Source: an uncultured Gammaproteobacteria bacterium
Lineage (GTDB): Bacteria; Patescibacteriota; Patescibacteriia; UBA2591; UBA6264
Direction of reading: 5' to 3'
NCBI GenBank assembly: GCA_964507075.1
Contig: CAZDOL010000009.1
Span: 1 to 26,681 of the forward strand
DNA: 26,681 nucleotides
Position 1 is the stretch's first letter, and the number at the start of each line of letters is the position of its first letter. Under the pieces are notes generated by a model. The model was given only the letters and a program-made list of their open reading frames with translations. It did no database searches and was not told the origin of the DNA. Of the stretch, positions 1,523-26,493 are shown piece after piece. Made by a program: the position numbers and the translations under genes.

Positions 1523-2902
1523 ATGAATTTTGATTTTATATTAAACCCAAATCTTTTATCTTTCTATATTGAGCAAGGTTTTTATTATTTTGCTCAGTTT
1601 TTTTTAAATTATGGTCTTTGGATATTTTTAACCCTTGTTATTTTAACAATAATATGGAAGCATTGGATAGACAAAAATAAGAAACAATATTTATCCAAAC
1701 AGAAATATATACTTTTGGGAATTAATATGCCCAAAGATAATGAGCAGGGCCCAGAAGCAGTGGAAAGATTTTTTGTGCATTTAGCAGGCATTAGAGAGAA
1801 ATTTACATGGTATGAAAAGAATATTCAAGGCAAAAGCCAACTGAATATATCTTTAGAAATGGTCAGCATTGAGGGACAAATTCAATTTTTTATACACACC
1901 CCAGTTCAATTTCGTGATTTAGTGGAATCAGCTATCTACACTTCTTATCCTAGTTTAGAAATTTTTGAAGAAAACCAAGATTACACAGATAATGCATTAG
2001 AAGGATTTTTAGAAGATAAGCATAATGTCTGGGGCGCGGACCTTAAACTGGTTGAACAAAATCCCATTCCCATTAAAACTTACCCTGAATTTGAGCACAA
2101 ACTTAGTAAAGAATTAAAAGATCCATTAATAGATCTTTTGGAAGTTTTGGGCAGATTGAAGGCAAGCGAACAAATTTGGCTCCAATTTATTATTACTCCA
2201 ATTGACTCAGAACTTAAGGAAGAGGGAGAGAGATTAATAAAAAAGATCTTACTTGGGAAGGATATTAAAAAAAATCCTAACAACATTATAGATATGGCTG
2301 TGCTTTTCCTGATGAAATTTGGGCAAGATGCAGTAGAATTTATTAAAGAAGTCCTAGATCTTCATCCAACGGTAGATAAATTTGAAGACAAAGAAGAAAA
2401 GAATATTTCTTTACCAGGAGACAAACGTTTGATTGATGCGATTCAAAATAAAATATCTAAAATCGCTTTTGAATCTTGCATCAGGATGGTTTATTTGGCT
2501 GATAAAGAAGTTTTTGCCAAAGATAGAGGTATAACAGGAACTTTGGGCGCTTTTAACGCTTTTCGCGCAATAGATTTAAATAGTTTTGAGGTTTCATTAG
2601 TTTCAAGGGTTGCTGAGAAGAATTGGAAGGGCAGTAAAATTTTAGAAGCCCAAAAACAAGAAGTTATTAAGGCATATCAAAAAAGAGCTTTCAAGTGGAG
2701 GGCAAGGGTTGGTATCCCTAAGATAATTTTTAAAGTTAAAAATTTTTTAACCCTACCTGAACGTTCGGCTCCCAAAAGCATTTTAAACACAGAGGAATTA
2801 GCCACTATTTATCATTTCCCAGTTAATATGATAAAAGTATCTCTTATTAAAAAAACCAGTAGCAAAAAAGCCGAACCACCATTAGGATTGCCCGTTAAGT
2901 AG
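1523..2902 (+). CDS. Hypothetical membrane-anchored protein (N-terminal TM segment, large soluble C-terminal region); function unknown
   Basis: Long uninterrupted ORF of 459 aa. Hydrophobic N-terminus (GLWIFLTLVILTIIW). No catalytic motif that I recognise. ELATIYHFP motif near the C-terminus. Confidence 0.7.
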   Translation: MNFDFILNPNLLSFYIEQGFYYFAQFFLNYGLWIFLTLVILTIIWKHWIDKNKKQYLSKQKYILLGINMPKDNEQGPEAVERFFVHLAGIREKFTWYEKNIQGKSQLNISLEMVSIEGQIQFFIHTPVQFRDLVESAIYTSYPSLEIFEENQDYTDNALEGFLEDKHNVWGADLKLVEQNPIPIKTYPEFEHKLSKELKDPLIDLLEVLGRLKASEQIWLQFIITPIDSELKEEGERLIKKILLGKDIKKNPNNIIDMAVLFLMKFGQDAVEFIKEVLDLHPTVDKFEDKEEKNISLPGDKRLIDAIQNKISKIAFESCIRMVYLADKEVFAKDRGITGTLGAFNAFRAIDLNSFEVSLVSRVAEKNWKGSKILEAQKQEVIKAYQKRAFKWRARVGIPKIIFKVKNFLTLPERSAPKSILNTEELATIYHFPVNMIKVSLIKKTSSKKAEPPLGLPVK

Positions 2903-3080
2903 CGACTTTGTCTGATAAAATCAAACCCGTAGGGTGAAGATTTTTCAGCAACAAAGACGACTACCCTGTTAAATACTGCTATGCAGTAATTTCGCCAAAG
3001 GCGAAATTATTTAACAGGGTGCTCAAAAATAAAATAAAATTTAATTCGCTTTGCTCTAAAATTTTAATATTTTTGGCATG
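2900..3080 (+). repeat. Structured intergenic element, copy A (full length, core in 'A/B' orientation)
   Basis: Runs from TAG at 2900, the stop of the upstream ORF, to ATG at 3078, the rsmI start. Hairpin module 2912-2948. Core 2963-3020, bounded by ACCCTGTTAAAT / ATTTAACAGGGT. Right arm 3021-3077. Its flanks are near-identical to copy D (26314-26493). Confidence 0.9.
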
Positions 3081-9667: not shown

Positions 9668-11080
9668 ATGTTTTTCAAAAAAATATTTTCTCCATCAAAA
9701 CCTGATTTTCTTAAAAAAGAGAAAGAGGAAGAGGAAGGAAAGGTGATTTGGACAGAGAAAAAACCAGCGCCCAAAAAGAAAAAACCAGGCACTTTTTTTA
9801 CCCTTCGTTTCAAATTAAGGCCTATTATGGGTGTAATGTTAGTTAGTATGATTATTGGCGCGATAGCTGGCGGTTTTGCCGGATATTATGCTGGTAGTTA
9901 TTTTCTGACGGATTTTATTTCTACTTCTTCTATTATTGCCCCACAGGTAATCAGGCATAGTGATAATAATTTATTACCTACTTCAAACCAAGATGCGACT
10001 ATAGCCGTAGAACAGGCAAGTCCATCTGTAGTGAGCATTATAGTTACCAAAGAGATTACTACTTATTACGGCAATCCACAATCCTCATTTGATGATTTTT
10101 TTAAAAATTGGTCTTTTGGTTTTGATGATTTTTTTTATGGCCCACGAATACCAGAAAATTGGGGACCAAATCCACCACAGGAAGAGAAAAAGGAGACACG
10201 ACAAATAGGCGGCGGTACTGGTTTTATTATTTCAAGTGAAGATGGTTTAATCTTGACCAATAAACATGTAGTTTCAGACACAGAAGCAGAATATACTGTT
10301 ATTACAAACGATGGCGAGAAATATGAAGCAGAGGTTTTGGCGCGAGACCCATTTAATGATATTGCGATTTTGAAAGTTCAAGCATCTGATTTATCAGAGA
10401 TTAAATTAGGAGATTCAGATACACTAAAGATTGGACAAACAGTGATAGCTATCGGAAATGCTTTGGGAGAATATCGTAATACAGTTACTAAAGGCGTTAT
10501 TAGTGGTATTAGCAGGCGAGTAATCGCTGGTGATGCTTATGGTTCATCAGAGGTTTTAGAAAATGTAATTCAAACTGACGCAGCTATTAACTTTGGTAAT
10601 TCTGGTGGTCCTTTAATTAATTTGCAAGGAGAAGTAATTGGCATTAACACAGCCATTAATATAGAAGGACAATTAATAGGATTTGCTATTCCAGTTAATC
10701 AAGCTAAGCAAGTTATTGAAAGCGTTAAAGAATATGGTTATATTATTAGACCATACATAGGGGTAAGGTATACATTGATTAATAAGGATATTATTGAGAA
10801 AAATAATTTAGAAGTTAATTACGGAGCTTTAATTGTTCGCGGACCCGAAGAATCTGATTTAGCTGTTATTCCGGGTTCTCCAGCTAATAAAGCAGGTTTA
10901 GCAGAAAATGATATTATTTTGGAGGTTAATGGAGAGAAAATTAACGAAGAATATTCTTTATCTAGGGCTATTCAAAAACATCAACCCGGAGATGAAATAG
11001 AATTAAAAGTTTATCATCAAGGCGAAGAAAAAATAATTAAAGTAATCTTAGAAGAATACAACAAACCAACAGAAGAATAA
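9668..11080 (+). CDS. htrA: HtrA/DegP-family trypsin-like serine protease with a C-terminal PDZ domain, N-terminally membrane anchored
   Basis: Catalytic triad contexts TNKHV, DIAILK and GNSGGPL. PDZ-like segment GSPANKAGLAENDIILEVNG. N-terminal TM helix MGVMLVSMIIGAIAGGFAG. Confidence 0.88.
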   Translation: MFFKKIFSPSKPDFLKKEKEEEEGKVIWTEKKPAPKKKKPGTFFTLRFKLRPIMGVMLVSMIIGAIAGGFAGYYAGSYFLTDFISTSSIIAPQVIRHSDNNLLPTSNQDATIAVEQASPSVVSIIVTKEITTYYGNPQSSFDDFFKNWSFGFDDFFYGPRIPENWGPNPPQEEKKETRQIGGGTGFIISSEDGLILTNKHVVSDTEAEYTVITNDGEKYEAEVLARDPFNDIAILKVQASDLSEIKLGDSDTLKIGQTVIAIGNALGEYRNTVTKGVISGISRRVIAGDAYGSSEVLENVIQTDAAINFGNSGGPLINLQGEVIGINTAINIEGQLIGFAIPVNQAKQVIESVKEYGYIIRPYIGVRYTLINKDIIEKNNLEVNYGALIVRGPEESDLAVIPGSPANKAGLAENDIILEVNGEKINEEYSLSRAIQKHQPGDEIELKVYHQGEEKIIKVILEEYNKPTEE

Positions 11081-11115
11081 TAATAAATATTTAATAAATA
11101 ACTATATATATCACA

Positions 11116-11142
11116 ACACTACAGGGTCTGACCTTGTAGTGT
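11116..11142 (+). terminator. Hairpin of shared 3' module, copy 1 (after htrA)
   Basis: ACACTACAGGGT-CTG-ACCTTGTAGTGT forms a 12-nt-arm hairpin. It is part of a roughly 75-nt module that begins at the last codons and stop (..GAAGAATAA..ATATATATCACAACACT..). The downstream T tract is weak (ATTT). Confidence 0.55.
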
Positions 11143-11144
11143 AT

Positions 11145-11173
11145 TTGACAAAAGCTCTCTTTTTTGCTAATAT
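11145..11173 (+). promoter_or_regulatory. Sigma70-type promoter for the 261-aa gene
   Basis: TTGACA (11145-11150), a 17-nt spacer, then TGC-TAATAT (extended -10, 11165-11173). Confidence 0.55.
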
Positions 11174-11231: not shown

Positions 11232-12017
11232 ATGATAAGTGAAAAAGATTTTCAACCTCCTGTTGATCCGACGAACACTGAGTCAAAAGAGGACAAAAAA
11301 GAAGAAATAATAGAATCAACAGAAGAAGATGTAATGCCGAACCAGGAAGTAGATTCGCAAGAAGAAAAAGAGAATAAAGGTACAGAAGAAGAAAGAAAAG
11401 TTAAGCTTTCGGAGAGATTTAATGCGATTCAGGACATTATGGATTATAAAAGAATCAAAGAAGGAATGATGTCTGAAAGAGAAAAAAAATATTTTAGTGG
11501 TGCACACAATAGCGTTGATGTTTTTTCCAAATTAGAAGATTATATCCGTGATTGTTTAGAAAAGAATGCGCCTGCTGATGAGATAGAAAAAAATGTGGAT
11601 ATTCTTGAATATAGCGCAGGTGAGTTATTAAAAGATAACCCTAATAGAGAAGAATCAGATAGACGCCTCGCTCAGTTTATTAAAGATAGAATAGATCATT
11701 TTGTAGCTACATTTAATCAACGTATAGAGGTAATAGAAAAATCAGGCATATGCGACTTACAAGAAGAAGCAATTAAAATCGCGAAAGAAAAAATTGATCT
11801 ACTTTTAAAAGATGCAGAAGAAATCATAAAGCAAGGCGTAGAAGATAGAGCAGAGGGGAAGAAATTAAACACAGGAGACGCAAAATTATTGATGAAAGTA
11901 GCCAATGAAATGGAGCATGCTATTCCTGGCGTGGAAGCGAGCCACGAAGCTGCTTTGCTTTTTAGAGCTGATGATTTTAAAGAAGAGAAGCCAGAAGAGA
12001 AGCCAGAAAAAGAATAA
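11232..12017 (+). CDS. Hypothetical acidic E/K-rich protein (261 aa), probably largely helical or coiled; function unknown
   Basis: Long ORF with its own promoter and terminator modules. No motif that I recognise. Its N-terminus MISEKDFQ parallels MIKENDQEFQ of the next unknown gene. Confidence 0.65.
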   Translation: MISEKDFQPPVDPTNTESKEDKKEEIIESTEEDVMPNQEVDSQEEKENKGTEEERKVKLSERFNAIQDIMDYKRIKEGMMSEREKKYFSGAHNSVDVFSKLEDYIRDCLEKNAPADEIEKNVDILEYSAGELLKDNPNREESDRRLAQFIKDRIDHFVATFNQRIEVIEKSGICDLQEEAIKIAKEKIDLLLKDAEEIIKQGVEDRAEGKKLNTGDAKLLMKVANEMEHAIPGVEASHEAALLFRADDFKEEKPEEKPEKE

Positions 12018-12046
12018 AGATTTAAGAAATAATCATATATATCACA

Positions 12047-12073
12047 ACACTACAGGGTCCGACCCTGTAGTGT
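12047..12073 (+). terminator. Hairpin of shared 3' module, copy 2 (after the 261-aa gene)
   Basis: ACACTACAGGGTC-C-GACCCTGTAGTGT has perfect 13-nt arms and is followed by TTTTTGTAT. Confidence 0.7.
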
Positions 12074-12158
12074 TTTTGTATATAGATTGTTTGTGGGGTT
12101 TTTAATATTCTAATATTTTGATATAATATTATATATGGAAATTACAGAGTCTAAATAA
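12074..12158 (+). repeat. Duplicated copy of the prfB promoter and first codons (truncated remnant encoding MEITESK*)
   Basis: TTTTGTATATAG..TTGTGGGGTTTTT..TG-A-TATAAT..ATATATGGAAATTACAGAG matches 13246-13385 (TTTTTTTGTATTATAG..TTGTAGGGTTTTA..TG-G-TATAAT..ATATATGGAAATGACAGAA). ATG at 12135, stop at 12156-12158. Confidence 0.75.
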
Positions 12159-12244: not shown

Positions 12245-12285
12245 TATTGAACTAAATAATTTAATTTGTTCTAATTTTAAAATTT

Positions 12286-13170
12286 ATGATTAAAGAAAAT
12301 GATCAAGAATTTCAAGAAAAAGCTCTTGATTATATCCAAACTCTTTTATATCAAGGTGCAAACAAGGATTTAGTTGCCGAGAATTTAGCTGGGTTAGATT
12401 CAGACAGAGCATGGAAAATGCGAGAAGATTTTTTGGCCCAGGGCGTAGATAAGCGTTGGATTATTTCTGGTTTAGCTGGGTTAAATTCAGACAGAGCATG
12501 GAAAATGCGAGAAGAGCTTTTGTTTCAAGGCGTAAACAAGGATTTAGTTGCTCTGAGTTTAAGTGGTTTAGATTCAGATAGAGCATGGGATATGCGACAA
12601 GATCTTTTGTCTCAAGGCATACACAAGCCTGATATTGTTAGAGGTTTAGTTGGTTTAGATTCAGATAGAGCATGGAAAATGCGAGAAGAATTTTTTTCTA
12701 AGGGCACAGTCAAAGAATCAGTTCCCTTAAGTTTAATTGGTTTAGATTCAGATAGAGCATGGGATATGCGAAAGAGGATTTTGTCTAAAATCTATACTAA
12801 TTTATCTACTCAAGAATTATATCAGAATTGGGTTGCTCAGAGTTTAACTGGTTTAGATTCAGATAGAGCATGGAAAATGCGAGAAAATCTTTTGCTTCGA
12901 AAGGGAACAAGGAATTCAATTACTCAGAGTTTAGCTGGGTTAGATTCAGATAGAGCATGGGACATGAGAGAAAGAATGTTATCTTATGGCGTAAATAACA
13001 ATTGGATTGTTAAAAGTTTAGCTGGGTTAGATTCAGATAGAGCATGGGACATGAGAGAAAATTTTTTGTCTCAAGGCGCAGACGAGGGCCGTGTTGCTCA
13101 AGGAGTTTATGGTGATTATACAATGGTAGGTGTCAGAAAAGCAAGAAGAGATAAAGCAGAACAAGAATAA
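12286..13170 (+). CDS. Hypothetical tandem-repeat protein: eight copies of a 29-residue unit with core GLDSDRAW(K/D)MRE; predicted alpha-solenoid; function unknown
   Basis: Protein-level repeats such as LAGLDSDRAWKMREDFLAQGVDKRWIISG. The fifth unit is 37 aa. Alternating conserved hydrophobic and charged positions suggest a helical hairpin repeat. Confidence 0.75.
   Translation: MIKENDQEFQEKALDYIQTLLYQGANKDLVAENLAGLDSDRAWKMREDFLAQGVDKRWIISGLAGLNSDRAWKMREELLFQGVNKDLVALSLSGLDSDRAWDMRQDLLSQGIHKPDIVRGLVGLDSDRAWKMREEFFSKGTVKESVPLSLIGLDSDRAWDMRKRILSKIYTNLSTQELYQNWVAQSLTGLDSDRAWKMRENLLLRKGTRNSITQSLAGLDSDRAWDMRERMLSYGVNNNWIVKSLAGLDSDRAWDMRENFLSQGADEGRVAQGVYGDYTMVGVRKARRDKAEQE
12388..13107 (+). repeat. 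Intragenic 87-nt tandem repeat array (8 units; unit 5 is 111 nt)
   Basis: Units start at 12388, 12475, 12562, 12649, 12736, 12847, 12934 and 13021. The core GG(G/T)TTAGATTCAGA(C/T)AGAGCATGGGA/AAA.ATG is almost invariant at the nucleotide level. Confidence 0.9.
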
Positions 13171-13195
13171 ATATTTCAAAAATAATTATATACAT

Positions 13196-13250
13196 CTCAA
13201 CACTCCAGAGCTGTACCCCGTTCTACGGGGTCTGACCTTGTAGTGTTTTT
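13196..13250 (+). terminator. Shared 3' module, copy 3 (after the repeat-protein gene), with an internal insertion
   Basis: Sequence is CTCAACACT-CCAGAGCTGTACCCCGTT-CTACGGGGTCTGACCTTGTAGTGT followed by TTTTTTT. It carries about 18 extra nt relative to copies 1 and 2. A CCCCG-TTCTA-CGGGG hairpin lies at 13216-13230. Confidence 0.6.
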
Positions 13251-19248: not shown

Positions 19249-19283
19249 TATAGCTTTTGGGAAGAAATGTGGAAAAGTAAATC

Positions 19284-19312
19284 TTGCCAAAAAATTATTA
19301 ATAGGATATCAT
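19284..19312 (+). promoter_or_regulatory. Candidate promoter for tuf
   Basis: TTGCCA (19284-19289), a 17-nt spacer, then TATCAT (19307-19312). This would give a leader of about 170 nt before the tuf ATG. Confidence 0.35.
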
Positions 19313-19488
19313 TATTTATGAGCGAGCGAGCGAAAAGTAAATTCCTTTTCTTTTCCGAGCGAGCGAAATAAACAAAGGGTTTATTATCCTTTATTACTGT
19401 TTAATAAAATTAAAATAATTTCGCGATTGCTGTTATTCTTTTATTAATAATTAATTATTCAGCACGCGGAAATAATGAGGTAAATAAT

Positions 19489-21088: not shown

Positions 21089-21223
21089 AATTGAATTAAT
21101 AAAAGGTTTTTACTTACCATTGATAACCGTTTGTTGAATAACAAATGAAGTGTTAAGGGGAATTAATTACCTGGGGAGAAAAATTTTCATTAATTTAAAT
21201 CAGACAAAATAGAATAATAAATA

Positions 21224-21272
21224 AGCCGGATTTGTAACCGGTCTCTAAGGGTCTGGTTCTCTGGCTTTTTTT
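21224..21272 (+). terminator. Intrinsic-terminator-like long hairpin plus T7 tract inside the 217-nt rpsJ-rplC spacer
   Basis: AGCCGGA...AACCGGTCTC-TAA-GGGTCTGGTT.TCTGGCT is followed by TTTTTT(T). The outer helix is 7 bp and the inner helix about 9 bp, with G-U pairs and one mismatch. Confidence 0.55.
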
Positions 21273-21305
21273 ATTGAATATTTTTTATAACATTAAATAC
21301 AAGGT

Positions 21306-22549: not shown

Positions 22550-22553
22550 AGAC

Positions 22554-22649
22554 ATCAGGTACTTGGGTAATCAGGTACTTGGGTAATCAGGATTTTAATT
22601 ATTTAATTTACCCAATTAACCAATTAACCAAGCACCCAATTAACCAATT
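22554..22649. repeat. Tandem and interspersed short repeats in the rplD-rplW spacer
   Basis: The 16-nt unit ATCAGGTACTTGGGTA is present in 2.4 copies (22554-22591). CCCAATTAACCAATT occurs at 22611-22625 and 22635-22649. TTGGGTAA (22579-22586) is complementary to TTACCCAA (22608-22615). Confidence 0.85.
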
Positions 22650-22653
22650 CAAT

Positions 22654-23130
22654 ATGTTCTTATTTAAGAAGAAAAAAGATTCCTTGACACCACCCGTCAA
22701 GACCGATCAGAAAAAAGAGAAGTCATTGACCATTAAGAAGGGTGCGCCTTCAGTTTCTTCTGTTCCAGGGATTTCAAAACAAGAGTCAAAAAAGGTAACG
22801 CCAATTTCTAAATCAAAAGCAGTTCATCTTGGCTCAAATAAGGATCTTTTTGGAAATCTTTTGCTTCGGCCCATTATAACAGAAAAAGCTACAATTTTAG
22901 CAGGAGAAAATAATTGTTACGTTTTTGAGATTGCTTCACGAGCAAATAAAATTTCTATTAAGAAAGCGATTGCGGAAGTCTATAATTTTACTCCTATTAA
23001 AATTAATATCGTTAAAATTAAGGGCAAAAGTGTAAGGTATGGTCGTTCACGGGGCAGGACTAAAAATAAAAAAAGAGCTTTAGTTTTTCTTAAAAAGGGT
23101 GATCATATAGAATTTGTAAAAAGGGGCTAA
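22654..23130 (+). CDS. rplW: 50S ribosomal protein L23 with a K-rich N-terminal extension of roughly 65 aa
   Basis: The canonical L23 core begins at LLRPIITEKAT. I prefer ATG 22654 (MFLFKKKK) over the track's TTG at 22579, which lies inside the repeat region. The exact start remains uncertain. Confidence 0.85.
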   Translation: MFLFKKKKDSLTPPVKTDQKKEKSLTIKKGAPSVSSVPGISKQESKKVTPISKSKAVHLGSNKDLFGNLLLRPIITEKATILAGENNCYVFEIASRANKISIKKAIAEVYNFTPIKINIVKIKGKSVRYGRSRGRTKNKKRALVFLKKGDHIEFVKRG

Positions 23131-24336: not shown

Positions 24337-24936
24337 ATGCAAGTGCAAGCTCGAAGTAAGTATTTAAAAATCTCGGCCAAGAAAATGAGATTAGTGGCTG
24401 TAACTATTAAAGGAATGGATGTTTCTTATGCTTTAGATTATTTGAAATTCATTCCCCATAAAGCATCACCGTTAGTTTCTAAACTTCTTCATTCAGCCAT
24501 AGCTAACGCTGAGCATAATTTTAATCTTGATAGTCATAATCTATTTGTAAAAAAAATCTTTGCTGACGAAGGAACAATGCTTAAAAGGTGGCGCGCTAGA
24601 GCGTTTGGTAGAGCTACTCCTATACATAAAAAAAGTTCGCATTTAACAATTATTTTAGAAGAAAAAGTTCCTAGCAAGCAACAACATAAATCAAACGACA
24701 ATAAATTAAAAGAACCTTCTGTTTTAAAGACTGATTTGCATGAAACAAAAATAAAACCTTTAGAAAGTGTACATTCTGGGAAATTAGAGAAAGATGAAAT
24801 AGAAGAAGAAACTAAAGAGGGCAGAGACAGTCAGGAACAAGATAATAAATATCGCAAAAAACAAAATCTTAAGCGAGTTCAGAATAAATCTAAAGCCATA
24901 ACACTAAAAAAGATTTTCAGAAGAAAAAGTATTTAA
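24337..24936 (+). CDS. rplV: 50S ribosomal protein L22 with a charged C-terminal extension of about 90 aa
   Basis: The L22 core runs through ...RWRARAFGRATPIHKKSSHLTIILEE. It is followed by a K/E/Q-rich tail. Confidence 0.92.
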   Translation: MQVQARSKYLKISAKKMRLVAVTIKGMDVSYALDYLKFIPHKASPLVSKLLHSAIANAEHNFNLDSHNLFVKKIFADEGTMLKRWRARAFGRATPIHKKSSHLTIILEEKVPSKQQHKSNDNKLKEPSVLKTDLHETKIKPLESVHSGKLEKDEIEEETKEGRDSQEQDNKYRKKQNLKRVQNKSKAITLKKIFRRKSI

Positions 24937-25117
24937 AGGGCTTTGTCTGATAAAATCAAACCCGCAGGGTGAAGATTTTTCAGCAACAAAACCTTTACCC
25001 TGTTAAATACTGCTACGCAGTAATTTCGCCAGAGGCGAAATTATTTAACAGGGTACTCAAATTTGAAACGAAATTTCCTTCGTTACTTCGTAACTCGTAA
25101 ATTTAGACAAATTTAGT
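24937..25117 (+). repeat. Structured intergenic element, copy B (core in 'A/B' orientation, divergent right arm)
   Basis: Hairpin module 24947-24983. Core 24997-25054 (ACCCTGTTAAAT...ATTTAACAGGGT). The right arm differs from copies A and D and contains its own hairpin, AACGAA-ATTTCC-TTCGTT. Confidence 0.9.
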
Positions 25118-25768
25118 ATGGGCAGAAAAGTAAATCCAAAAATTTTCCGCATCCCGCTTATTAATCAGTGGGATTCAAAGTGGTTCGCTAGTAAAAATAA
25201 ATTCCGCCATTTTTTGGAGGAAGATTTACGAATTAGAAAATTTTTAAAGACAAAATTAAAAAATTGCGGAATTTCTAAAATAACTATAGAAAGATTTGCA
25301 GGAACATTTAGGGTAATAATTCATACCGCTAAACCTGGTTTGATTATTGGTAGAGGTGGCCTTGATATTGAAAAGCTAAAGAAGGTAATCAAGCTAAATT
25401 TTTTAAAAAATAAAGATTTGAATTTAGAAATTAATGTCATAGAAGAAAAATCACCTTTGTTAGCCGCAGAAGTAGTGTTAGAAGGAGCAATTTTGGAGTT
25501 AGAAAAAAGGATGCCATATAGACGAGTGTTGAAAAAGGTTATCAAGCAGGTTCAGGACGGAAAAGCTAATGGGGTTAAAATTATAGTCAAGGGACGTTTG
25601 GGCGGTGCCGAAATAGCCAGATCAGAAAAAGCGATCTGGGGAAATCTCCCCCTTCATACTCTACGCGCTGACATAGATTATGCTCGTGGAGTGGCAGCCA
25701 CTACCTATGGTTCTATTGGCGTTAAGGTTTGGATTTATAAAGGAGAGAAGTTTAGTAATTCTGTCTGA
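25118..25768 (+). CDS. rpsC: 30S ribosomal protein S3
   Basis: MGRKVNPKIFR...KH domain...GRLGGAEIARSE. The stop TGA (25766-25768) lies inside the repeat element's conserved TGTCTGATA. Confidence 0.95.
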   Translation: MGRKVNPKIFRIPLINQWDSKWFASKNKFRHFLEEDLRIRKFLKTKLKNCGISKITIERFAGTFRVIIHTAKPGLIIGRGGLDIEKLKKVIKLNFLKNKDLNLEINVIEEKSPLLAAEVVLEGAILELEKRMPYRRVLKKVIKQVQDGKANGVKIIVKGRLGGAEIARSEKAIWGNLPLHTLRADIDYARGVAATTYGSIGVKVWIYKGEKFSNSV

Positions 25769-25902
25769 TATTTTTAAGTCCGCAGGACGCAGAAAATTCA
25801 GCTACAGAATTGCTACCCTGTTAAATAATTTCGCCTTTGGCGAAATTGCCACGGAGTGGCATTTAACAGGGTGCTCAAAAATTAATAAATTAATTTTTTC
25901 GC
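25762..25902 (+). repeat. Structured intergenic element, copy C (core in 'C/D' orientation, short right arm, covarying hairpin module)
   Basis: Hairpin module 25765-25801. Core 25815-25872. Right arm GCTCAAAAATTAATAAATTAATTTTTTCGC runs up to ATG 25903. Confidence 0.9.
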
Positions 25903-26316
25903 ATGTTAATGCCCAAAAAGTTAAAACATCGCAAAAGTCATAAAGGACGCGCTAGGGGTAAGAGGATAGCCACTAGAGGTACGAGGGTTAGCTTTGGAGA
26001 TTTTGGATTAAAAGGATTGGATTTTTCTTGGATTACTTCTAGACAGATTGAGTCAGCTCGTCGCACCATAACTCATTCTCTGGCCAAAACTGGAAAGGTA
26101 TGGATTAGGATATTCCCACATAAACCAGTGACAGCTAAGGGAGCAGAAGTACCAATGGGCGGTGGTAAGGGAGCAGTTGATCATTATGTGGCGGTAGTTA
26201 AACCAGGTACTGTTCTTTTTGAGGTTGCTGGGGTTGAAGAAACAGTTGCTAAAGAAGCTTTTCGTTTAGCTTCGCATAAACTACCCGTAAAAACAAAGTT
26301 TGTTTATAGGGTATAG
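25903..26316 (+). CDS. rplP: 50S ribosomal protein L16
   Basis: [16 protein letters not shown]...; typical L16 over its whole length. Confidence 0.96.
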
Positions 26317-26493
26317 CGACTTTGTCTGATAAAATTGAACCCGCAGGGTGAAAATTTTTCAGCCACAAAGACGCTACCCTGTTAAATAATTTCGCTTACA
26401 GCGAAATTGCCGCAGAGCGGCATTTAACAGGGTGCTCAAAAATCTAATAAAATTTAATTCGCTTCGCTCTAAAATTTTAACATTTTTGGCATG
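26314..26493 (+). repeat. Structured intergenic element, copy D (full length, core in 'C/D' orientation)
   Basis: Runs from TAG 26314-26316, the rplP stop, to ATG 26491, the rpmC start. Hairpin module 26326-26362. Core 26376-26433. The right arm differs from copy A at only 4 positions. Confidence 0.9.

Follow-up and report, generated by a model that had tools for sequence, protein, structure and literature searches.

The rplV-rpsC, rpsC-rplP and rplP-rpmC spacers of the S10 ribosomal operon are each filled by one copy of a modular structured element. All coordinates refer to the window, which is the whole stretch of 26,681 nucleotides of DNA that was analysed. A repeated structured element in these three consecutive spacers had been proposed in an initial, sequence-only reading, and this proposal is upheld. 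The spacers are 181 nt (24937-25117), 134 nt (25769-25902) and 174 nt (26317-26490) long, respectively, and the three copies fold with z-scores of -6.32, -9.13 and -7.45, values that were equalled in 0/200 dinucleotide shuffles in each case. When the three operon copies are aligned, the mean column identity is 74%, and the core arms ACCCTGTTAAAT and ATTTAACAGGGT are unchanged in all of them. The arm 12-mer occurs exactly eight times in the window, forming four inverted pairs, compared with approximately 0.003 occurrences expected by chance from simple arithmetic for an exact 12-mer in 53 kb (both strands). Each full copy consists of three abutting helical domains, which are called the left arm, the core and the right arm, and these are located as follows:

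24934..24997, + strand: left arm of copy 1; its first codon is the rplV stop TAA, and its base pairs as TAAAGG/CCTTTA
24998..25053, + strand: core of copy 1; closing stem CCCTGTTAAAT/ATTTAACAGGG, 12 bp counting the flanking A-T pair
25054..25118, + strand: right arm of copy 1; its last nucleotide is the A of the rpsC ATG
25753..25815, + strand: left arm of copy 2; begins at an out-of-frame TAG within rpsC, and UAGUAAUUCUGU pairs with ACAGAAUUGCUA
25816..25871, + strand: core of copy 2; hairpin order B-A, AATTTCGCC-TTT-GGCGAAATT followed by GCCAC-GGA-GTGGC
25872..25903, + strand: short right arm (32 nt) of copy 2; base TGC...GCA, and its last nucleotide is the A of the rplP ATG
26314..26376, + strand: left arm of copy 3; its first codon is the rplP stop TAG, and TAGCG/CGCTA are paired
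26377..26432, + strand: core of copy 3; inner hairpin order B-A
26433..26491, + strand: right arm of copy 3; its last nucleotide is the A of the rpmC ATG
2900..3080, + strand: fourth copy; left arm 2900-2963, core 2964-3019, right arm 3020-3078

The 37-nt hairpin module that was originally noted is real, but it represents only the top of a left arm that measures 61-64 nt and starts at the stop codon. The base helix of this arm contains the stop codon (TAA or TAG), and in copy 1 the arm carries an internal AA/GAA loop and an apical GCA loop. Copy 2 had been placed entirely within its spacer, from 25769, whereas it actually begins inside rpsC at 25753, such that its left arm contains the final five rpsC codons and the TGA stop (25766-25768, within GTCTGA). 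The core, which is 50-63 nt long among all representatives, has an invariant 12-bp stem that encloses two short hairpins of free sequence. Although a 58-nt core with such a stem and two hairpins had been seen, the inner hairpin order in copy 1 (A-B, namely ACTGC-TAC-GCAGT and then AATTTCGCC-AGA-GGCGAAATT) is opposite to that in copies 2 and 3, and the existence of the core as an independent unit in several phyla had been missed. Likewise, the ‘A-rich right arm’ does reach the ATG, but it is itself a conserved hairpin whose base, TGC...GCA, includes the A of this codon; in copy 1, nested helices (CAAATTTG/CAAATTT and AAATTT/AAATTT) surround GTTAC-TTC-GTAAC. Across copies, the right-arm base helix holds either the A or all of the next gene’s ATG. 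It is this incorporation of both stop and start codons into the fold that the earlier anatomy overlooked.

The structure of the element is under selection. All stop-to-ATG sequences evaluated (69/69) fold as left arm, core and right arm. The stop codon is complementary to the three nucleotides preceding CCCTG in 55 of 56 copies and covaries with this partner (TAA with TTA, TAG with CTA), and the right-arm base is fully complementary in 41/58. Compensatory changes were observed for 14 of the 14 pairs of the right arm and 18 of the 21 pairs of the left arm, and compensated variants of the closing stem also exist. Among right-arm cells, 94% are paired, compared with 70% in shuffled versions, and the observed level was reached by 0/500 shuffles. 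Two loop features of the left arm are also conserved: its internal loop contains only purines (RA opposite GAA) and is strand-specific, and its apical triloops follow the pattern GNA. The arm stems are near-perfect Watson-Crick helices with approximately 3% G-U pairs, and a strand-asymmetry test (G-U versus A-C) revealed that G-U pairs in the arms are no more frequent on the sense strand than on the antisense strand. The argument for selection at the RNA level must therefore be carried by orientation, codon placement and the purine loops only. A wobble test on core flanks yielded an orientation bias in the C-A direction rather than the G-U direction.

The element had been viewed as a feature of the S10 operon, which proved too narrow. 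The fourth copy in the window extends from the TAG stop of a DUF8128 gene to the ATG of an rsmI-like gene and is found in every strain fetched, and its location upstream of the latter gene demonstrates that the element is not restricted to ribosomal-protein genes. Approximately 90 further distinct copies were found in Patescibacteria metagenomes, and both arms covary strongly. Within a set of 93 distinct copies, 82/85 share their strand with the gene downstream. Many of these genes are non-ribosomal, and the list includes rsmI, sua5, queA, relA/spoT, thrS, rsmH, atpC, secF, pilM and RNR genes. The element always adjoins the downstream ATG, and some copies constitute the entire 5ʹ leader after a divergent upstream gene. 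Such copies, along with cores that reside inside coding sequences, conflict with the notion that the element is tolerated only between cistrons. Because the copies in the operon are sense-oriented, they should be co-transcribed with it, as was expected initially.

The element disperses and turns over. A fifth copy, located between rplN and rplX, is present in the sequences L001-L003 and absent from L004-L006, with flanks that are 99.8-99.96% identical. Occupancy also varies between sister species, as is evident from the following spacer lengths:

tuf-rpsJ: 28 nt in species A, 180 nt in species B
rplV-rpsC: 181 nt in species A, 179 nt in species B, 16 nt in species C
rpsC-rplP: 134 nt in species A, 7 nt in species B, 25 nt in species C
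rplP-rpmC: 174 nt in species A, 299 nt in species B, 18 nt in species C
rpsQ-rplN: 8 nt in species A, 9 nt in species B, 117 nt in species C

Right-arm remnants are left at two ‘empty’ junctions in species C, and deletion remnants keep exactly the 3ʹ strand of the right arm beside the ATG. When filled and empty sites are compared, the old spacer is seen to be replaced rather than split (TAG-AAATTTT-ATG becomes TAG-174 nt-ATG), and the same is true at tuf-rpsJ, rplV-rpsC, rpsC-rplP and rpsQ-rplN. These comparisons revealed no target-site duplication, which together with spacer replacement is unlike ordinary cut-or-copy transposition. The insertion of copy 2 removed the last 14-16 codons of rpsC, and RpsC is 216 amino acids long here versus 232 and 230 amino acids in sister species. 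Modules are exchanged as well, given that some orthologous copies have left and right arms in common and unrelated core interiors, and others have the left arm and core in common and right arms of different type. A search for left-right arm pairs without a core gave just one or two ambiguous cases (L176, L143).

The core is a selfish unit: it flips, nests, is exchanged among copies and is found on its own in many phyla. At least 129 cores were found in genomes of at least eight phylum-level groups, including Patescibacteria, WOR-3, Omnitrophota, Desulfobacterales and others. The core is bounded by perfect 11-12-bp inverted arms. Cores occur in both orientations relative to the left and right arms, the inner hairpins of copy 1 being flipped relative to those of copies 2 and 3, and they are also seen in tandem and nested within other cores. 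Core-only copies have an orientation bias of 22 to 4 (22/26). A TA dinucleotide lies beside at least one arm in approximately 70% of cores, and the flanks vary. Cores also create in-frame inserts of 17-21 residues in RsmA, GatA, LeuRS, RecG, glycosyltransferases, a DsbD-like protein and ExbB. Cores within ORFs are always open in frame, and the encoded peptide in RsmA, GatA, LeuRS, RecG and others reads PVK...FNRV or LLN...LTG. Relative to KsgA 6ifs, the RsmA insert is a clean addition of 18-20 residues. It lacks a duplication, its boundaries are ambiguous by at most 1 nt, and on the opposite strand it is preceded by TTTA and terminates in TGAA. None of the copies in the window lies within a protein, apart from the five-codon rpsC tail. 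The invariance of the closing stem across phyla is unusual for REP-type repeats and may reflect conservation of a binding partner or of a function.

No transposase, RAYT or other mobilizing candidate was found near approximately 217 cores in 214 loci. Clustering of 831 ORFs within 3 kb of cores yielded housekeeping families only, with no recurrent transposase-like cluster, and wherever two cores are close together, the ORFs separating them are housekeeping genes such as ftsE, ftsX, prfB and rpsS. Similarly, no long element bounded by core arms was found in these 214 loci. Arms occurring singly and arms paired over a long range were examined as possible borders of a parent element, and the one candidate, of 850 bp in L090, proved to be a metallo-beta-lactamase-fold gene between direct repeats rather than a transposon.

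Searches of reference collections likewise produced no relative. Two tRNAs are the sole matches in the window to Rfam 15 at the gathering score, and only chance-level matches emerge up to E = 10 (best 21 bits versus a threshold of 59), in line with the sequence-only reading, which knew of no such motif. When 72,556 plasmids and 50,697 phages were searched by BLAST with a core consensus, only chance fragments were returned; no viral contig among 2.9 million matched in an exact-pattern scan, and literature searches by arm sequence and topic found no description of the element. With no match among the Rfam, phage, plasmid and viral collections or the literature searched, the element is best read as a new family.

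Several established RNA and DNA functions were also considered and set aside. No copy has a terminator-like site (a stem followed by a T run), and thus the original judgement that these are not intrinsic terminators holds. A ribosomal-protein autoregulatory leader (e.g. S10/L4) is inconsistent with copies that precede non-ribosomal genes and with junction occupancy that differs between sister species. Hammerhead and other small ribozymes were rejected on the basis of the lack of unpaired junction nucleotides and of any Rfam match. Shine-Dalgarno mimicry by CAGGGTGA is contradicted by the inconsistent position of this motif and by its sequestration in the closing stem. The sequence TGTTAAAT is shared with the XerD arm of Escherichia coli; however, its flanks carry neither a dif central region nor a XerC arm. 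Duplication of a TA target, which would rebuild both TAA and ATG, was rejected on two grounds, namely the absence of the old spacer and the GGCATG ending of many copies.

The closest parallels are found among mobile palindromes. The REP and BIME sequences of enterobacteria and pseudomonads are mobilized by RAYT Y1 transposases, are transcribed and stabilize upstream mRNA. Like these, the element is a short extragenic palindrome of high copy number that is often situated between co-transcribed genes without target-site duplication. BIMEs are mosaics of units in either orientation, and here the left arm, core and right arm are exchanged independently. However, a REP is a single hairpin of 20-40 nt with a species- or genus-specific sequence, whereas the element has a three-way-junction core, a closing stem that is invariant across phyla and two long arms fitted to stop and start codons. 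Moreover, ORF clustering revealed no RAYT gene in the vicinity of any copy. Rickettsia palindromic elements (RPEs) reside between genes and also in frame in unrelated housekeeping proteins, with a conserved peptide for each family (PMC10969869). The core is similarly found in frame in unrelated proteins with a conserved peptide, a comparison made at the level of description, although RPEs are approximately 150 bp and confined to Rickettsia whereas the core is 50-63 nt and occurs in multiple phyla. Bacterial MITEs such as Correia/NEMIS, ERIC, BOX and RUP are structured, 100-200 bp long, co-transcribed and polymorphic for presence or absence (PMC10969869). BOX elements are modular, MITEs insert into one another, Correia inverts, and mRNA is affected via RNase III or RNase E (PMC10969869). 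Although our element is also structured, modular, nested and, through insertion polymorphism between related genomes, polymorphic, the terminal inverted repeats of its full left arm-core-right arm form would amount to no more than a weak shared TTTGTCT approximately 8 nt from each end in one right-arm subtype. It also lacks target duplication, and the 214 loci yielded no parent insertion sequence. In addition, those families are not described as strictly sense-oriented or as fitted between a stop codon and an ATG.

Two further systems offer more limited resemblance. Integron attC sites have the consensus RYYYAAC on the 5ʹ side and GTTRRRY on the 3ʹ side. Each is a palindrome, variable in its centre, that folds as a single strand and lies after the end of a gene. 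The core arms GTTAAAT/ATTTAAC fit GTTRRRY/RYYYAAC. An attC identity was nevertheless rejected because the polarity is reversed (GTTAAAT...ATTTAAC, with GTTRRRY 5ʹ and RYYYAAC 3ʹ) and because the neighbours are ribosomal-protein or housekeeping genes in conserved order. There is no integrase or cassette array, and copies lie inside ordinary operons and ORFs. RNase III signals are located between the cistrons of T7 early mRNAs, and mitochondrial tRNA punctuation leaves mRNAs that begin at AUG. The analogy would be in mode of working only, as structured units positioned exactly between cistrons, and the left arm, with its upper stem, asymmetric loop and lower stem, is like a T7 R1.1-type signal. 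Those signals are not mobile repeats, however, and processing of the element is suggested here only by analogy.

We consider it reasonably probable that the element is a non-coding, non-autonomous, modular palindromic repeat, representing selfish DNA similar to REP/BIME, MITE and RPE sequences, and that its turnover in this lineage of Patescibacteria continues. Among the three roles offered at the outset, the REP/MITE-like one best fits the evidence because of strain-level presence and absence, patchy occupancy in sister species, nested cores and in-frame insertions in proteins. Copies would reach new gene junctions by a trans-acting mechanism, by ectopic gene conversion or by both, and would be lost through deletion between short repeats. 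Every copy is expected to be co-transcribed with its downstream gene. To survive, a copy would have to terminate translation of the upstream gene, adopt a compact fold in the sense strand and allow the next start codon to be used; such a filter for compatibility with translation would produce both the strict sense orientation and the close fit between stop and start codons. Alternatively, the sense orientation could reflect insertion into the lagging-strand template. The element would also be expected to affect the mRNA that carries it, in that its stable hairpins probably protect the flanking cistrons or act as processing sites.

A host-beneficial cis-acting RNA that punctuates operons, with mobility being secondary, is an unlikely alternative that nevertheless accounts for several details. 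It might serve as an RNase III-type processing signal, as a stabilizer hairpin for both cistrons, as a means to bring stop codon and AUG together for termination-reinitiation, or as a cleavage site that leaves leaderless mRNA. Such roles are favoured by the fact that the element adjoins the downstream ATG even when it forms the whole leader after a divergent gene, by the remnants that retain exactly the right-arm 3ʹ strand beside the ATG, by the strand-specific purine loop and GNA loops kept amid covarying stems, and by covariation of the stop codon with its partner. Furthermore, direct reading of the other junctions of the operon found no obvious Shine-Dalgarno sequence, so start-site context may matter. 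A beneficial RNA is difficult to reconcile, however, with sister species and even strains that lack the element at the same junctions, with the truncation of rpsC by an insertion, with cores that occur in coding sequences and in both orientations, and with the absence of G-U asymmetry between strands.

This last observation instead suits a purely DNA-level element, in which an HUH/Y1-type mechanism, resembling those of IS200/IS605 or RAYTs, would act at the replication fork, the hairpins would matter only in its single-stranded DNA intermediates, orientation would follow replication direction and the RNA fold would be irrelevant. Near-perfect Watson-Crick palindromes with approximately 3% G-U pairs, the predominance of triloops such as GAA closed by C-G, the RsmA insert with its lack of duplication and its TTTA and TGAA borders on the other strand, the 22/26 bias of core-only copies and the insertion of cores into cores are all compatible with this mechanism. 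Yet we judge the reading as a whole to be somewhat less likely again than operon punctuation. It leaves unexplained why the left arm starts at a stop codon, why the right arm ends exactly at ATG in approximately 90 independent copies, why in-ORF cores remain open in frame and why the loops are purine-only; moreover, no Y1 transposase such as TnpA was seen among the clustered neighbour ORFs of the loci. Very improbable is a portable promoter, whereby the right half supplies a Correia-like sigma-70-type promoter to the downstream gene. Copies 2 and 3 do contain TTAACA (in the core 3ʹ arm) followed after 17-18 nt by TAAAAT or TAAATT (18 nt and TAAAAT in copy 3), and the same boxes can be read in the fourth and fifth copies and in L010. 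However, the -10-like box is missing from copy 1 and from the G+C-richer relatives L033, L097 and L100, which keep the architecture, and an overall scan is at background (31 sites versus 24.7 expected).

A bolder version of events, which we regard as speculative and improbable, is that the element is a self-propagating ‘portable gene junction’. This mobile cassette would bring its own stop codon and dock on the next start, and its RNA would be recognized, cut or bridged for translation of the downstream gene. The 58-nt three-way-junction core would then be a new minimal element class, moved as folded single-stranded DNA by an enzyme conserved across phyla. If true, this would constitute a bacterial counterpart of tRNA punctuation and of the formation of leaderless mRNAs, built on a core that is able to colonize intergenic spacers and, in frame, essential proteins.

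Patescibacteria genomes are very small and gene-dense. The selfish repeat that we favour adds 130-300 nt at many operon junctions in such a genome, including those of the most highly expressed operon of the cell. It also has consequences for annotation, as copies inflate spacers, truncate or extend proteins (RpsC here) and place 17-21 residues into conserved domains. Clean cases of recent gain, loss, module exchange and in-frame protein insertion are now available from uncultured bacteria. The spread of Rickettsia palindromic elements and similar palindromes is an unsolved question, which strain-level polymorphism in public metagenomes makes tractable. The core stem that is invariant across phyla may point to a conserved partner such as an enzyme or a binding protein.

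The S10 ribosomal operon at the right-hand end of the window, in which the repeat was noticed, has the following gene order:

tuf, rpsJ, rplC, rplD, rplW, rplB, rpsS, rplV, rpsC, rplP, rpmC

The rplV-rpsC, rpsC-rplP and rplP-rpmC spacers are 181, 134 and 174 nt long, and most other junctions of the operon measure 8-42 nt. When aligned, the three spacers share 74% mean identity, with the arms ACCCTGTTAAAT and ATTTAACAGGGT unchanged in all, and their element copies (copies 1, 2 and 3, in operon order) are far more stable than shuffled controls (fold z = -6.3, -9.1 and -7.5). Lengths, alignment and fold scores thus confirm the repeated structured element proposed by the sequence-only reading, and the repeat in the three spacers is real. 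That reading also stated correctly that the stems lack a following T tract, as no T run was found after those of the copies. The Rfam search it recommended returned no family for the element, whether at the gathering score or with E values up to 10.

Between stop codon and ATG, the element folds into three helical domains (left arm, core and right arm) that directly adjoin one another with zero linker nucleotides. The first two are:

Left arm: 61-64 nt, beginning at the stop codon
Core: 56 nt lying between CCCTG and CAGGG, a three-way junction

The base helix of the left arm depends on the stop codon (TAAAGG/CCTTTA with TAA, TAGCG/CGCTA with TAG), and is followed upward by a 2-nt bulge, a middle helix, a 2-by-3 internal loop, a 4-bp helix and a triloop. 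The 12-bp closing stem of the core bears a G+C-rich 5-bp hairpin and an AATTT...AAATT hairpin; these inner hairpins, called A and B, are ordered A-B in copy 1 and a fourth copy, and B-A in copies 2 and 3. In the right arm, a variable hairpin sits inside two nested helices formed by the self-complementary boxes CAAATTTG and AAATTT, and the basal TGC...GCA pairing takes in the A of the ATG. Some right-arm subtypes hold the entire ATG in a helix, for example CATAGTTG paired with CAACTATG. The first base of the element gives TAA or TAG, and the other two frames usually have TGA and TAA. Copy 2 starts at 25753, within rpsC, where its TAG is out of frame; rpsC stops at the TGA of GTCTGA inside the copy.

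The element is not restricted to the S10 operon, since the fourth copy (2900-3080) separates a DUF8128 gene from an rsmI-like gene. A fifth is present at rplN-rplX in three ENA assemblies, on contigs with identical RpsC. The ~47 kb covered for this organism contains exactly five copies, and all but one belong to the S10/spc cluster. When metagenomes were scanned for the full element with an exact pattern, 88 loci with ~90 distinct copies were recovered. Among these, the downstream gene is co-stranded with the element in 82 of 85 cases and the upstream gene in 76 of 84; the other eight adjoin a divergent upstream gene and constitute the entire leader. Leader copies at L150 and L177 (L numbers denote loci fetched from other assemblies or metagenomes) have TTGAAT, 16 nt and TAAAAT directly 5' of the element's TAAAG. 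Spacing from stop codon to core peaks at 63-64 nt, and from core to ATG at 58-64 nt and at 31 nt. The three stop-codon bases complement the three bases 5' of CCCTG in 55 of 56 copies, a match that the search pattern partly imposes, and the right-arm base is fully complementary in 41 of 58. Genes 3' of copies have varied housekeeping roles and include Sua5, QueA, RelA/SpoT, ThrRS, RsmH, ATP synthase epsilon, SecF, PilM, RsmI and ribonucleotide reductase. Sense orientation is strict, with the element tailored to stop and start codons.

Covariation is seen in both arms, and the structure is under selection. Compensatory double changes are seen at all 14 pairs of the right arm (32 sequences), in which 94% of cells are paired, compared with 70% in shuffles (0/500 as high) and at most 62% with partners slid. 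For the left arm (19 sequences), the corresponding values are 18 of 21 pairs with compensatory changes and 90% versus 70% of cells paired. The closing stem does not vary in the pattern-selected set; a relaxed scan recovered the fully compensated stems CCCCGTTAAAT/ATTTAACGGGG, CCCTGTGAAAT/ATTTCACAGGG and CCCCGTTAGAT/ATCTAACGGGG. On the sense strand, the left-arm internal loop is made of purines only (GA/GAA ten times, AA/GAA six, GA/AAA three); base counts on its 5' side are A 48, G 21, C 1 and T 0, and most apical loops are GNA. Such strand asymmetry would be unexpected if the palindrome mattered solely as double-stranded DNA. However, G-U pairs make up ~3%, equally between strands, which weighs against RNA-specific selection.

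Comparisons between strains and species reveal recent gain or loss of copies and the swapping of modules among them. The fifth copy's rplN-rplX site is a bare TAG-AAATTTT-ATG in three JGI assemblies, whose flanks are >99.7% identical to the filled ones. Species B (L178, L129, L155) and C (L181, L136, L166), ~85% nucleotide-identical, are sister species of the organism of the window (species A), and occupancy differs between their operons. Species B has copies at tuf-rpsJ, rplV-rpsC, rplP-rpmC, rplN-rplX, rpsH-rplF and secY-adk, the rplP-rpmC copy having a second core nested within a hairpin of the first, and species C has the sole copy of its operon at rpsQ-rplN. The 'empty' rplP-rpmC and rplN-rplX spacers of species C consist of the terminal 24-27 nt of the right arm, which indicates that elements were lost with the ATG-proximal strand retained; the remnant TAAAATTTTAAAATTTTTGGTATG differs by one base from the arm of species B and is derivable via deletion between two TAAA repeats. 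At rplV-rpsC, the left arms of species A and B show two differences in 61 nt and the right arms are similar, whereas the core interiors are unrelated; at rplN-rplX, left arm and core are common and the right arms are of unlike types. This mixed similarity, together with the single core subtype of species B (in both orientations), is a signature of exchange among copies. In every filled/empty pair the former spacer is gone, not split. Copy 2 replaced the C-terminal tail of RpsC, so that the protein has 216 aa in species A versus 232 and 230 aa in the sister species, a loss of 14-16 residues.

Element-free sites at L181 (reverse complement 3054-3069; rplV-rpsC of species C) and L187 (~6300) carry ATTAACG (TAAATTAACGAA, AAATTAACGTC), resembling the 3' arm ATTTAACAGGG, a likeness that may mark either a past loss or a favoured target site. 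At L177 (~990-1120), a distinct palindromic insertion of ~130 nt (GGCTTTACCCCGCACCTTTTAAGGAT...ATCCTTAAAAGGTGCGGGGTTTATT) adjoins a repeat copy, is missing in the related L150, and counts as a second small mobile element of these genomes.

Other junctions of the operon, at rplD-rplW (window 22550-22653) and in L001 (13457-13539, 13966-14107, 17276-17489), hold different hairpin-forming short tandem repeats with inverted complements (e.g. GGTACTTGGGTAATCAG twice with ACCCAATTAACC, CATGGGAA three times with TGTTCTAATGTTCAAATG, AAATCCG four times with TTTAGAATTTAGAG); matching places in sister species measure 9-106 nt. The rpsJ-rplC spacer (21089-21305, 217 nt; 213 nt in species B) ends 3' in a stem and T run (GGCTTTTTTTATTG) and could be an attenuator or leader after rpsJ, with no kinship to the repeat. 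A 240-nt spacer upstream of tuf (19249-19488) contains direct repeats of GAGCGAGCGAGCGAAAAG and a promoter-like TTGCCA, 17 nt, TATCAT at 19284-19312. The same terminator-like 74-nt block (hairpin CACTACAGGGTC.GACC.TGTAGTG plus T run; at 11074-11147, 12005-12078 and 13158-13231) follows each of three consecutive genes, and gene 12286-13170 has 87-nt tandem repeats (12272-13168). Protein L22 (rplV, 24337-24936) has a lysine/glutamate-rich C-terminal extension of ~85 residues, and L23 (rplW, 22579-23130) a long N-terminal one.

The core constitutes an independent element: it crosses phyla, can be nested and occurs in frame within proteins. Scanning one genome per species gave at least 120 loci and at least 129 cores among the matches listed, which come from many Patescibacteria classes, WOR-3, Omnitrophota, Stahlbacteria, Deferribacteraceae, Desulfobacterales and other deltaproteobacterial MAGs, and some MAGs labelled Spirochaetales, Bacteroidetes or Gammaproteobacteria; several of the contigs are 100-950 kb. 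Across these listed matches the closing stem sequence is constant, the inner hairpins have no common sequence, and 76 of 90 classifiable cores lie between co-directional genes, with many ribosomal-protein neighbours in several phyla. Cores without arms read TTCA-core-TAAA on the sense strand in 22 of 26 cases. Two cores can follow each other in tandem (L012), a nested core can replace another's G+C-rich hairpin (L062, L083, L108, L021, L031, species B), and in some lineages a core caps a long palindrome built by the flanks (L068, L073). No core was found in viral contigs with an exact-pattern scan, or in plasmids and phages, which gave only chance fragments. In WOR-3 the core interior is a conserved 40-nt non-hairpin sequence. 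WOR-3/Stahlbacteria loci L013, L014, L016, L019, L035, L039, L044, L046, L056, L075, L082, L098, L102 and L104 have the same closing stem around the conserved interior ATTTACAAAATTAAGTACAAGTAATCATCTCTGGTACTTT, with conserved flanks (...GTATTGTCAAAAATCTAACCACAGATTCA on one side, GARCCACAGAGA on the other), and could represent either the gene of a small RNA or another element that shares this stem.

At least 11 loci carry the core in frame within a conserved protein, read as PVK...FNRV or LLN...LTG. Cores of 50-63 nt give inserts of 17-21 residues across several lineages (e.g. L015 4882, L009 6849, L008 679, L125 7551, L107 1979), and nine of 11 have a length of 2 mod 3, which with a 4-nt tail keeps the reading frame. 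An 18-20-residue insert cleanly breaks the alignment of RsmA to B. subtilis KsgA (6ifs); GatA can be aligned through an enlarged linker. LeuRS, RecG, two GT4 glycosyltransferases, a DsbD-like protein and ExbB each have a Pfam domain that continues over the insert. The RsmA site, AGAG-TTCA[core]-TAAAAAAG versus an inferred AGAGTAAAAAAG, corresponds to insertion with zero duplication, equivalently 3' of TTTA on the opposite strand.

The element is a dispersed, modular, strongly structured repeat, and not a terminator, an Rfam family or a ribosomal-protein leader. Given their operon position and, in leader copies, the promoter-like site just 5', copies are presumably co-transcribed with neighbouring genes. 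Its uniform form would then arise by selection on the transcript, in which upstream translation must be halted, the insert folded away and the next AUG left usable. By analogy with REP, Correia and ERIC elements, which affect mRNA decay or processing (PMC10969869), the hairpins probably do likewise. Replacement-type junctions, remnants and mosaics suggest that copies and remnants undergo ectopic gene conversion with one another, and the core behaves as if an enzyme that recognises hairpins in single strands were acting on it in trans. In its behaviour the element resembles REP/BIME repeats, bacterial MITEs and Rickettsia palindromic elements. Unlike MITEs it shows no target duplication, and no parent element turned up in 214 loci; its polarity is wrong for integron attC. 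Its novelty lies in uniting a cross-phylum core, a three-domain fit from stop to start codon and in-frame protein inserts. The element is of clear interest for research on mobile DNA and reduced genomes.
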